Notes under the pieces: generated by a model
Told to the model about the DNA's origin: nothing
The model's database searches: none
The model's input: the letters and a program-made list of their open reading frames with translations, nothing else
Position numbers and translations under genes: made by a program
NCBI GenBank assembly: GCA_046484975.1
Contig: JAWOHX010000045.1
Location: 1 to 55,693, forward strand
DNA: 55,693 nt
Reading direction: 5' to 3'
From: Clostridia bacterium
Lineage (GTDB): Bacteria; Bacillota; Clostridia; DUPQ01
Part shown: positions 43,937-49,858 of the stretch, piece by piece
Layout: each line of letters begins with the position of its first letter
Position numbering within the stretch: the first letter of the stretch is position 1

Positions 43937-45265
<1,329 letters not shown>

Positions 45266-46786
45266 TTATTTTAAAATCAAAGATTTTCCTGTCATTTTTT
45301 CGGGTTTTTCCAGGTTCAGCAGATCCAGCAGGGTGGGTGCGATGTCTGCAAGGATTCCTTCCCGCAGATTCAGGTCACCATACCCCGCGATGATGAAGGG
45401 AACGGGATTCAGGGTATGTGCGGTGAAGACCCTTCCGTCCTCGTCCAGCATCTGCTCCGCATTCCCGTGGTCTGCTGTGATCACAGCGATTCCTTCCATA
45501 TGGAGAATGCTGTCCACTACCTTTCCGAGGGATTGGTCCACTGCCTCCACGGCCTTGACGGCGGCAGGAAAATTCCCCGTATGTCCCACCATGTCGCAGT
45601 TGGCAAAATTCAGTACCATGACCTCATATTTCCCGGACTGAATTCTTCGGATGGCTGCCTCGGCAACTTCCGGTGCGCTCATCTCCGGTTGCATGTCAAA
45701 GGTCGCCACTTTCGGGGTGTCAATGAGGACACGGTCCTCATTGTCGAACACGGCCTCCACCCCTCCATTGAAGAAGAAAGTGACATGGGCGTATTTGGTG
45801 GTTTCCGCAATGCGCAGCTGGCGCAATCCTTTTTTGCTGACATGTTCCCCGAAGGTCTGCGTCAGGTCGCTGGGCTTGAATGCCACACGGATGTTCTGAT
45901 AGGTCACATCGTATTGGGTGAAGGATATGAAATTGACCGGGAAATATCCTTTTTCCCGAGGAAACCCCTTAAAGTCCTCTTCGATGAAAGCTTTTGTGAT
46001 TGCCCGGGCCCGGTCAGGCCTGAAATTGAAAAAAACAATGGAGTCGCCTGGTTCTATGAGTTTGACAGGGCCGTTGTTCTCCCGGATGACGCAAGGGATG
46101 ACAAACTCGTCCATCACCCCGGCATCGTATGAACGCAAAACACCTTCCTCAGCGCTGGAGGCCTCCGCGCCTGTTCCCAGCACCATGGCATCATATGCCA
46201 GCTTCACACGGTCCCACATGGTGTCCCTGTCCATACCGTAATATCTGCCCATGATGGATGCGATCTTCCCGATTCCTTTTACCCGGATGATTTCCTCCAG
46301 CTCCCGGACATAGCATATTGCGCTGTCGGGAGGGACGTCCCTTCCGTCAAAAAAGCAGTGGATGTATACCTGCTTCATTCCGTTGGCTTTCGCCATGTCC
46401 AAAAGGGCATAAAGATGGGTATTGTGGCTGTGAACGCCTCCGTCTGACAACAGGCCCATCACATGGAGGGAGCATTGATTTTCCCTGCAGTTTGAAAAAG
46501 CCTCTAAAAGTTCAGGATTCTCAAAAAAATCCCCGTCCTTGATGGATTTTGAGATTCGTGTGAGTTCCTGGTAGACCACCCGTCCAGCGCCGATGTTGGT
46601 GTGTCCCACCTCCGAGTTTCCCATCTGTCCTTCCGGCAGGCCGACACTGAGGCCGCTGGCGCTCAGTGTGGTATGGGGATATATCCTGAAATATCTGTCC
46701 AGATTCGGCGTATGGGCAGCGAGAACTGCATTGCCTTCCCGTCGTTCACTCAAGCCATATCCGTCCAGAATGATTAATGCAATCAT
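45266..46786 (-). CDS. gpmI: 2,3-BPG-independent phosphoglycerate mutase
   Basis: LIILDGYG, GQMGNSEVGH, DGGVHSH, NFRPDRAR, DMVGHTG and TADHGNAE. GGAGG precedes ATG 46786. Confidence 0.96.
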   Translation of the reverse strand: MIALIILDGYGLSERREGNAVLAAHTPNLDRYFRIYPHTTLSASGLSVGLPEGQMGNSEVGHTNIGAGRVVYQELTRISKSIKDGDFFENPELLEAFSNCRENQCSLHVMGLLSDGGVHSHNTHLYALLDMAKANGMKQVYIHCFFDGRDVPPDSAICYVRELEEIIRVKGIGKIASIMGRYYGMDRDTMWDRVKLAYDAMVLGTGAEASSAEEGVLRSYDAGVMDEFVIPCVIRENNGPVKLIEPGDSIVFFNFRPDRARAITKAFIEEDFKGFPREKGYFPVNFISFTQYDVTYQNIRVAFKPSDLTQTFGEHVSKKGLRQLRIAETTKYAHVTFFFNGGVEAVFDNEDRVLIDTPKVATFDMQPEMSAPEVAEAAIRRIQSGKYEVMVLNFANCDMVGHTGNFPAAVKAVEAVDQSLGKVVDSILHMEGIAVITADHGNAEQMLDEDGRVFTAHTLNPVPFIIAGYGDLNLREGILADIAPTLLDLLNLEKPEKMTGKSLILK

Positions 46787-46797
46787 TGGTCCTCCAT

Positions 46798-48744
46798 TCA
46801 ATATTTGCTGTAATGGACAATCCTGAGGAAATCTTCTTTCTTCAGGCTTGCGCCTCCGATCAGACCCCCGTCGATGTTGTCCATGTTGAACAGTTCGTCC
46901 ACATTGTCGGGCTTGACGCTTCCGCCATACTGGATGACCATCTCATTGGCAGCCAGCCTGCTGAACAATGATGCGATGGTATCCCGGATCATCCGGCAGA
47001 CATCCTCAGCCTGCTGTGCGGTGGCAGTCTTTCCTGTGCCGATGGCCCAGATGGGCTCATAGGAGATGACCGTTCTTTTCACCTGGTCCTCGGTAAGTCC
47101 CCTCAATGCGATTTTCACCTGGTAACGGATAATCTCGTTGGTCACATCCAGTTCCCTCTGCTCGAGGGATTCTCCAACGCAGAGGATGGGAATCATGTCA
47201 TGTTTGAATGCGGTATGGATTTTCTTGTTGACCGCTTCATCGGTCTCATTGTAGTACTGCCTTCTCTCGGAATGGCCGATGATCACATACTGCACACCCA
47301 GCTCCCTGAGCATGGCAGCTGAGACTTCCCCGGTGTATGCGCCTGTTTCATCGAAATGGACATTCTGCGCGCCGATGAATACAGGGGTTCCCTCAGCGGC
47401 TCTCATTGCCTCATGGATGCAGACATAGGGAACGGCACATATGACAACATCACTGCCCTCCTGGATCTCTCCCGCTATGCTTTGGATGAAATCATAGGTT
47501 TCCTTGGGCGTCTTGTTCATTTTCCAATTGCCGGCGATTATTTTTTTTTTGTCTTTGTCCAACAGGGCGTCGATGCCGGGGAGAACCTTCCCCTCAAGGA
47601 ATTCCAGTGCAGCTCCCCCGCCAGTGGAAATATGGGTGACTTTGTCTGCAAATCCAAGAATCTCAACAGCTGCGGCACTGTCCCCGCCTCCGATGATGGA
47701 TACCGCTCCCGACTCTGAGATGGCCCTGGCAATCTCCCTGGTCCCCTTGGCGAAATTCTCAAATTCAAATACCCCCATGGGACCGTTCCATATGATGGTC
47801 TTTGCTTTCCGTATTTCTGCGGAATATTTCTCAATGGTCAACGAACCGATGTCCACACCCATCCAACCGTCAGGCATGGCATCGGATGGCACATACTTGT
47901 ACTCGGTGTCGTTTTTGAACTCCTTGATGATGATGCTTCCGATGGGAAGAAGGATCCTGACGTTTTTCTGCTCGGCCTTTTTCATGAGTTCCTTTGCATA
48001 CTCCACCTTGTCTTCCTCACAGATGGAACTGCCAATCTTGTAGCCTTTCGCCTTAAGGAACGTGTAGGCCATCCCGCCTCCGATGATGAGGCTATCCACT
48101 TTTTCCAGAAGATTCTCAATGACGCCGATCTTGTCTGAGACTTTGGCACCTCCCAGGATGGCAACGAAGGGATGCTCCGGGTTCTTCAGCGCCTTTCCCA
48201 TGATCTCGATCTCTTTCTTTATCAGATAACCGCATACGGCCGGCAGATAATCTGCGATTCCTGCAGTGGAGGCATGGGCCCTGTGTACCGTTCCGAAAGC
48301 ATCATTGACGAAGATATCCGCAAAGCTTGCCAGTTCCCTTGCAAAAGCCGGGTCGTTCTGGGTCTCTTCCTTGTGGAACCTCACGTTTTCAAGAAGCATG
48401 ACTTGGCCGTCCTGCAATGCGGCTGCTTTTTTTTGGGCATCAGGTCCGATGACATCGCTGGCCATGATGACCTCCGTACCCAAGAGGTCGGAAAGTCTTT
48501 TTGCGACAGGCTTGAGACTGTATTTCTCTTCATATGTGTCCTTGGGTCTTCCCAGATGGGAGACCAGGATTGTCTTGGCCTTATTGTCTTTAAGGTAGTT
48601 GATGGTGGCAAGGGCCTCCCGGATCCGCTTGTCGTCCGTGATCTCCCCATTCTCATTCAAAGGGACATTGAAATCCATTCTGGCGATGATTTTCTTTGAC
48701 CTCACATCGATGTCTTCGATGGTCTTTTTGTTCAGGATTGCCAT
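46798..48744 (-). CDS. pgk-tpiA: Bifunctional phosphoglycerate kinase / triosephosphate isomerase fusion
   Basis: PGK part, aa 1-~398: [34 protein letters not shown] part: [35 protein letters not shown]. One 648-aa frame. Confidence 0.96.
47538..47550 (-). other. A10-TAA slippery tract at the PGK/TPI junction
   Basis: Minus strand GAC AAA AAA AAA ATA ATC. Losing one A gives AAA AAA AAA TAA. Confidence 0.7.

Positions 48745-48817: not shown

Positions 48818-49858
<1,041 letters not shown>

Follow-up and report, generated by a model that had tools for sequence, protein, structure and literature searches.

A run of ten adenines at the PGK-TPI junction of a Clostridia fusion gene as a putative transcriptional slippage site of the Thermotoga kind

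A fused gene for phosphoglycerate kinase (PGK) and triosephosphate isomerase (TPI) forces a 1:1 ratio on two glycolytic enzymes of non-consecutive steps, and the question raised by the locus described here is whether such a gene may also deliver one of the two enzymes alone. The locus lies in a 55,693-nucleotide contig of a Clostridia bacterium (JAWOHX010000045.1, assembly GCA_046484975.1), the whole of which is referred to as the window hereafter. An initial annotation had noticed that a run of ten A residues (A10; other run lengths are written likewise) is placed exactly where the PGK part of the gene meets the TPI part. The elements in question are as follows.

46798..48744, minus strand: pgk-tpi fusion open reading frame (ORF), 648 aa, the sole PGK match and the sole TIM match in the genome
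47587..48720, minus strand: PGK domain, PF00162, residues 9-386 (Pfam)
46810..47544, minus strand: TIM domain, PF00121, residues 401-645 (Pfam), without its own start codon or Shine-Dalgarno (SD) sequence
47541..47550, minus strand: A10 run, made of the AAA AAA AAA of Lys399-Lys401 and the first A of the Ile402 codon ATA; putative RNA polymerase slippage site
47538..47540, minus strand: TAA that would follow the last Lys codon directly in a transcript lacking one A or carrying two extra (translation)
47492..47494, minus strand: TGA that closes the frame entered with one A more, giving PGK with a 16-residue tail (translation)

On the minus strand (T10 on the plus strand), codons 396-403 read GAC AAA GAC AAA AAA AAA ATA ATC; that is, the junction is spelled GAC-A10-TAA-TC, with the run at the boundary of the PGK and TIM domains. 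The sequence and the Pfam assignments agree with the initial annotation on this point. The consequences of gaining or losing an A follow directly from the reading frames. When the unchanged sequence is translated from 47540, a stop is encountered at once, which would end a 401-aa PGK at ..DKDKKK, and when it is translated from 47542, 16 codons precede the TGA at 47492-47494; the products that had been predicted for nine and eleven A were thereby reproduced. Both non-zero frames are closed near the run, after 0 and 16 codons, as is characteristic of slippage sites of the T. thermophilus dnaX type, and ten A residues exceed the threshold of at least nine A or T in the transcribed region taken for this type (PMC5009743).

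Between the A10 run and the AGNWK motif of TPI, neither ATG, GTG or TTG nor an SD-like sequence was found, which bears out the earlier statement that TPI has no separate ribosome-binding site or ATG. An internal start of TPI was ruled out, since the next ATG after the run is codon 409, past the catalytic Asn and Lys. Three properties of the Thermotoga-type junction are present in the window: a PGK-TPI gene without a TPI start or ribosome-binding site, a run of 9-11 A spelling Lys-Lys-Lys, and a nearby stop. As for the protein, it matches positions 1-379 of the 379-position PGK profile and positions 1-244 of the 245-position TIM profile, so that two complete domains stand in one frame, and the AGNWK and GHSERR motifs are present in the translation; the gene is a bifunctional PGK-TPI fusion in its families (PF00162 and PF00121), completeness and catalytic motifs. 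No second PGK or TIM match was found in the genome (a draft of 2.07 Mb in 164 contigs, 97% complete).

The spelling of the junction is unusual for this genome. The A10 run, singled out by the initial annotation as the longest homopolymer noticed in a coding sequence, is the sole homopolymer of at least 9 in the window, where 0.08 runs of at least 10 A or T are expected from the base composition. In the whole genome, A or T runs of 10 occur 4 times and runs of 9 occur 20 times, and longer ones are absent. Lysine codons are divided almost equally between AAA and AAG (14644:14721, about 50:50), and all-AAA spelling is seen in 5 of the 138 KKK tripeptides (ORFs of at least 300 aa). The codon ATA, which supplies the tenth A and creates the TAA in the window, accounts for 14% of the isoleucine codons. 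A second, weaker homopolymer in the fusion ORF, an A8 of the coding strand (T8 on the plus strand), is located at 48427-48434 within the PGK part.

The explanation that we favor, with moderate confidence for the whole of it, is that the inter-domain linker of this PGK-TPI gene carries a homopolymeric slippage site of the Thermotoga pgk-tpi kind. Standard transcription and translation would yield the 648-aa bifunctional enzyme, the genome's single source of TPI. RNA polymerase would occasionally slip on the T10 template, and part of the mRNAs would then have an altered number of A residues. With one A fewer or two more, translation would reach the TAA directly behind the last Lys codon and release free PGK of 401-402 aa; with one A more, PGK with a 16-residue tail would be made. 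In this manner, a single gene, whose default product is the fusion, would supply more PGK than TPI. The components of this explanation differ in strength. The bare physical slippage event is likely, and our confidence in it is higher than in the two-product claim, namely that some of the transcripts are slipped and yield free PGK, which we consider fairly probable. Slippage in the window's organism, and any selection for it, is what we infer, and the ability of such runs to work is indicated by comparison, through conservation and frame toggling in Thermotogota and a few Clostridia.

Scans of related loci detected long runs at the same site in a Thermoclostridium metagenome-assembled genome (MAG), where the junction is GAC-A10-GAG TGA, in a Clostridia MAG (A9) and in a Thermotogaceae MAG (A10); two metagenome contigs with a long run have linkers that match Thermotogota loci. 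The Thermotogota were then surveyed at 151 genomes, among which 149 had a match and 136 junctions were read (loci L193-L302 and L310-L335 in genomes G061-G213); the other 13 matched genomes are outside the counts. A run of A9-A11 was found at the pgk-tpi junction in 116 of the 136 loci. The in-frame fusions comprise 50 loci with A9-A11 and 17 with a shorter run, while PGK and TPI are out of frame in 66 loci, 65 of which were scored by script (A9 in 57, A10 in 8) and one (L259) by eye. The rest are two truly split gene pairs, in which TPI has its own SD and ATG, and one locus that was left unassigned. Species flip between the in-frame and out-of-frame states.

Three features characterize the 65 script-scored out-of-frame loci. 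One is that the offset is identical in all of them: the two frames would be joined by an additional A or by a -1 shift. Another is that the TPI frame is poorly equipped for independent translation, with no ATG, GTG or TTG before AGNWK in 42 loci and an SD-like site in one locus. The last is that the PGK frame stops 0-4 codons past the Lys run. PGK and TPI are in different frames there, and TPI therefore needs a frame change at the run; judged from these sequences, the TPI of such cells must come via this route. For the in-frame class, a codon null was obtained by synonymous resampling with each gene's own codon usage; as related species are not independent, no p-value is attached to it. Among 65 distinct in-frame Thermotogota junctions, A9 or longer was expected in 20.6 and observed in 48, and for the junctions bearing KKK the expectation was 17.6 against 41 observed among 46. 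At split pgk/tpi loci (all sets), no run of A9 or longer was found between the PGK C-terminus and AGNWK in any of 148 loci, the maximum being 8, in 3 loci. Codon bias cannot explain the out-of-frame class at all, and these comparisons constitute good evidence that the A9-A11 junction run works as a recoding site.

The original paper on the T. maritima 'fus' locus (1995) reportedly described free PGK and a PGK-TIM fusion from one locus. A monomeric 43-kDa PGK and a 70-kDa PGK-TIM fusion have been reported for this species (PMC7729029). The initial annotation had drawn a parallel with T. maritima, and the parallel proved closer than was claimed. At locus L204 (genome G201), the junction is GAT-A10-TAA-CT, with the protein ..ADKKKITRKLILAGNWK and the linker ..ADKKK-ITRKLILAGNWK. 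Over 154 residues, the TIM part of L204 shows 100% identity to PDB 1B9B (T. maritima TIM, chain starting ITRK), and the PGK part matches 1VPE (T. maritima PGK), a 398-residue chain that ends at the Lys run. The 1VPE chain ends ..PGIASMRIKK., while the genome-derived sequence reads ..PGIASIADKK..; this is possibly an old sequencing difference near the homopolymer.

The junction architecture of this T. maritima-like locus is the same as that of the window (GAT-A10-TAA-CT and GAC-A10-TAA-TC, respectively): the enzymes and their order, the A-run Lys-Lys-Lys linker, the stop in an alternative frame and the lack of a TPI start are all shared. By sequence, the window's junction belongs to the poly-A pgk-tpi kind known from T. 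maritima, as an in-frame representative from the Clostridia with 'fusion by default'. The differences are that T. maritima belongs to another phylum, that the proteins are about 50% identical and that the window's linker past KKK is 3-4 residues shorter. In addition, the Thermotogota keep the run at most of their loci whereas the window's close relatives do not, and many Thermotogota are out of frame with PGK as the default product, whereas for the window the fusion would be the default. In the literature that could be searched for a conserved poly-A at pgk-tpi, a single sentence, in PMC4256274, touches on the subject; no paper was found on the run as such, on its conservation or on frame toggling, and nothing on the junction beyond the one case of T. 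maritima. The terms pgk, phosphoglycerate and triosephosphate, and the Thermotoga pgk-tpi case, are absent from the available part of the main text of PMC5009743 and from the main text of PMC3711429, whose supplements could hold them; the only trace of Thermotogota in the latter main text is a 'Thermotogae' row in a genome-count table.

How far does the junction extend within the Clostridia? In an even sample of the class, in-frame PGK-TPI fusions were found in 57 of the 399 scored genomes (rows covering both halves without stops). When 401 Clostridia genomes were scanned for A9 within 30 nt before GGNAAYTGGAA, six genomes from four families matched, against two for the reversed pattern used as the control. 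The six are the window's genome, G519, G372 (A10 in frame), G024 (A9 in frame), and G422 and G218 (both A9 out of frame). G519, a complete 4.3-Mb genome from a family other than the window's, has the fused junction GAT-A10-TAA-GG (L303, G519:C1, around 3070119-3070158), that is, the same design as the window. G422 (L305; one contig, 100% complete) and G218 (L307) each have a single TIM match, which is out of frame behind A9 with the usual offset; the TPI frame of G218 contains no ATG, GTG or TTG in its 177 open bases, and that of G422 contains two ATGs and no SD. Since G372 (L304), of the same genus as G422, and G024 (L308), of the same family as G218, are both in frame, closely related genomes alternate between the two frame states here as they do in the Thermotogota. 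For G422 and G218, either a slippage-dependent TPI or a homopolymer assembly error may be responsible.

Taken over both groups, the poly-A pgk-tpi junction may tentatively be regarded as a widespread slippage device that toggles in evolution and sets the PGK:TPI ratio in most Thermotogota and in several Clostridia, including the window's. Its occurrence in the Clostridia would have an independent or a shared origin, species would flip between A-run states with free PGK as the default and those with the fusion as the default, and strain-level AAA/AAG changes, such as the one seen against the contigs of public runs described below, would tune the ratio. This possibility is somewhat doubtful at present.

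A number of observations weigh against a maintained slippage site in the window's organism, and they come above all from its nearest kin. Junctions were read at 30 loci from 61 genomes of the family and the class, giving 22 in-frame fusions (the window's own included) and 8 split loci, one of which has A8 in the TPI N-terminus. In 20 of the 21 other in-frame fused relatives, the run is 8 A or shorter, being interrupted by AAG, AGA or CCN (e.g., CCT AAA AAA ATG; AAA AAG AAA; AGA AAA AAA ATT), and the sole A9 is found at L018. The nucleotide-level conservation of the run among close relatives, which belongs to the Thermotoga-type junction, thus fails for the window. One genus of the window's family (g4, L029-L031) even has split pgk and tpi. 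Its genes overlap as GAT AAA TGA, with stop and start sharing ATGA, so that PGK ends ..DK* and TPI begins MSRKKVIAGNWK; from this split TPI, the basic residues before AGNWK derive from the TPI N-terminus. A one-base change at an overlap of the g4 type would create the fusion of the other genera. The protein database contains hundreds of proteins of 645-650 aa that combine the two domains and are labelled as coming from Clostridia MAGs, and all of the best 120 listed have both domains. The window's protein forms a singleton cluster, the nearest other protein being 75% identical over the junction region. In a metagenome scan, 7 of 80 were fused and the rest mostly split, among the matches listed.

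A search of public sequencing runs for the stretch listed 13 runs, none of them on record as RNA. Within the species, low-depth contigs of four public runs (X1, X2, X3 and X7) were aligned to the window. Those of X3 and X7 do not bridge the junction. Those of X1 (record 6, 47067-47583, 6 differences) and X2 (record 11, 47430-47832, 5 differences), two runs from one study with contigs about 98.8% identical to the window, cross it ungapped. Both have T>C at 47542, a synonymous change of codon 401 (AAA to AAG) that converts A10 to A8-G-A; in this allele, the TAA is still one deletion away. Their further differences near the junction are at third codon positions (47512 and 47530, synonymous; 47569, D392E). 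Because these contigs are ungapped and differ at third positions, they indirectly support ten bases as the true length of the run and suggest purifying selection on the fusion frame. In addition, they reveal that the run in its unbroken form is not a fixed feature of this species. None of the contigs of the four runs, of which only those of X1 and X2 span the junction, has the A10 spelling. The initial annotation had named conservation of the A-run in orthologs as a check, and on this count it was partly contradicted for this lineage, as the fused relatives and the nearly identical contigs break the run with AAG or other codons.

The class as a whole points in the same direction. A9 or longer was present in only 4 of the 57 in-frame Clostridia fusions and missing from 53. 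When the junctions selected through the pattern (L303 and L304) are set aside, 39 non-Thermotogota junctions remain, of which 4 had A9 or longer against an expected 2.95; there is accordingly no run enrichment outside the Thermotogota. Since the majority of Clostridia get by with a plain fusion, there is no general need for free PGK in this class. Two of the three other A10 runs in the window's genome are also located inside long ORFs (515 and 373 codons), from which it follows that A10 in coding sequence is rare but tolerated. One of them is at G000:C30:8382-8391 (L336; 515-codon ORF, ..LEIQKKNNEIW..) and the other at G000:C72:5043-5052 (L337; 373-codon ORF, ..LEQEKKNEVKY..); they may be further slippage sites or merely tolerated runs. 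Out-of-frame states in draft genomes could in part represent homopolymer assembly errors. Clostridia easily dispense with the run, as the allele within the species, the relatives in the family and the frequency in the class all show, and it is therefore doubtful that selection keeps the run in the window's species. The claim of the initial annotation that programmed slippage sets the PGK:TPI ratio was thus upheld in one half: a second product via slippage is likely, and programmed ratio-setting in this organism is doubtful.

Outside the Thermotogota, one genus with AAA-rich codon usage consistently interrupts KKK with AAG. In genus g3 and its kin (L006, L012, L014 and L116), the linker is KKK and the AAA fraction is up to 0.86, while the run is always interrupted by AAG; the resampled probability of A9 reaches 0.66 per locus, and A9 was observed at none of these loci. 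This looks like avoidance of a slippery run.

These observations make it necessary to consider that the locus is an ordinary fused gene, in which A10 is a by-product of a Lys-rich linker (KKK plus a codon starting with A) and slipped transcripts are low-level noise or a small cost, with neither function nor selection. The commonness of PGK-TPI fusions in the Clostridia, nearly all of them without a long A-run, would be expected in such a case, as would the two-domain state of all of the best 120 listed proteins, the inheritance of the basic residues before AGNWK from the TPI N-terminus, the AAG of the same-species contigs, the agreement of non-Thermotogota A9+ frequency with the codon null and the other A10 runs in coding sequences of the genome. 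However, GAY-A10-TAA is found in exactly this form in G519 and the T. maritima-like genome as well, the window's genome as a whole avoids spelling KKK with AAA codons only and seldom uses ATA for isoleucine, and Clostridia whose sole TPI is out of frame at A9 imply a run-supported frame change in the class. Moreover, runs of at least 9 A slip efficiently in bacteria (PMC5009743), which makes a second product physically hard to avoid. On balance, the ordinary-gene explanation is rather unlikely, though it deserves to be kept in mind. Far less probable is an assembly artefact, in which the genomic run would really be A9 or A11 and the fusion ORF would have arisen through an error in a draft MAG. 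The genome is indeed a draft in many contigs, homopolymers are error-prone and the A10 spelling is absent from the contigs of the four runs, but the A10 frame spans two intact domains, TPI would otherwise have no way to be made, the contigs of two runs, about 99% identical, cross the site ungapped with the same 10-nt spacing (A8-G-A), and the frame is likewise continuous at this position in related fusions. This makes an artefact scarcely credible.

Granted a second product, it might be made at the ribosome instead, by a -1 frameshift on A_AAA_AAA or by sliding on poly-A. The heptamer is contained in the run, E. coli dnaX shifts -1 on A_AAA_AAG (PMC5009743), ribosome sliding on lysine-coding poly-A has been reported (eLife, PMC4363877), and a -1 frameshift is equivalent to the shift that would join PGK and TPI in the 65 out-of-frame Thermotogota loci. 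In the window, however, a -1 shift leads to the 16-codon tail and not to the adjacent TAA, and of the elements of a dnaX-type frameshift in E. coli, the slippery heptamer was found and the stimulators were not: the 81 nt downstream of the run fold no better than shuffled sequences (z -0.63), no SD-like stimulator is present upstream of the run, and no Rfam element, including frameshift elements, matched. Furthermore, the feature that is kept is a run of 9-11, the length of the polymerase hybrid, and not the heptamer; A7-A8 is not kept in the out-of-frame loci. A ribosomal origin of the second product is therefore regarded as improbable. Bacterial RNA polymerase is known to slip efficiently at runs of 9 A or T (PMC5009743), and as downstream structure, SD and Rfam match are all missing and a -1 shift misses the adjacent TAA, polymerase slippage appears to be the likelier route than structured ribosomal frameshifting, with ribosomal slipping as a minor rival.

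Several known systems may be compared with a slippage site at the window's junction. In T. thermophilus dnaX, an A9 run gives heterogeneous mRNAs, stops near the run in both other frames produce the short product, and in slippage of this type a single-base change can reverse the default product (PMC5009743). The likeness lies in the long product being encoded in one ORF and in the single-nucleotide reversal of roles, as between A9 and A10 of pgk-tpi. The gene is, however, unrelated, its short form is a truncated protein whereas the short form in the window would be a complete enzyme out of a two-enzyme fusion, and its ratio has been measured as 1:1. In C. rodentium tssM, slippage at A11 amounts to 20-25% and is abolished by AAG substitution, and in Y. 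pseudotuberculosis tssM3, the full-length protein is the default and slippage yields a shorter form at 15-25% (PMC4256274). Here too, poly-A in a coding sequence gives two length variants, with the full-length default of tssM3 resembling that of the window, but these are secretion-system proteins of Proteobacteria and lack the logic of a boundary between two enzymes.

Two further systems share features with the window. The PGK-TPI of Clostridium termitidis (Cter_4786) is abundantly expressed as one protein (PMC4877739); such plain Clostridia fusions share the fused architecture and the gap-pgk/tpi-gpmI context, but they mostly lack the A9+ junction, whereas the window has A10. E. coli dnaX shares an A-rich slippery Lys stretch and a shorter product ending at a nearby stop, but there the shift depends on an SD upstream and a stem-loop downstream, neither of which was found in the window, where moreover a -1 shift does not lead into the frame of the adjacent TAA.

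The fusion gene is part of a glycolytic gene cluster on the minus strand in the order gap-pgk/tpi-gpmI-eno, whose other members are as follows.

48818..49828, minus strand: gap (GAPDH), in the same operon, upstream of the fusion (Pfam)
45266..46801, minus strand: gpmI, cofactor-independent phosphoglycerate mutase, whose start overlaps the fusion stop by 4 nt (Pfam)
43937..45250, minus strand: eno (enolase), the last glycolytic gene of the cluster (Pfam)

The overlap at 46798-46801 is between the stop of pgk-tpi and the listed TTG start of gpmI. With gap upstream and eno downstream, pgk-tpi/gpmI forms a classical glycolytic operon of the Firmicutes type.

If the proposed slippage at the junction is true, the slippery joint would be a minimal means of uncoupling the two fused enzymes, by which extra free PGK is obtained from the same promoter and ribosome-binding site. 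For the window itself this is plausible, and the case is the weaker one because its nearest kin do without the run; the wider pattern in the Thermotogota and Clostridia is of more interest. In about half of the 116 A9-A11 Thermotogota loci, the only TPI is untranslatable without a frame change, and pgk/tpi at an A-run should not be called a pseudogene or a 'frameshifted' gene in annotation. For studies of recoding, the loci also offer an extensive natural series of A9/A10 toggles to measure, and in metabolic modelling the PGK:TPI stoichiometry is worth checking for this reason. The toggling device, if true, would be among the most extensive examples of conserved polymerase slippage in a gene of central metabolism.

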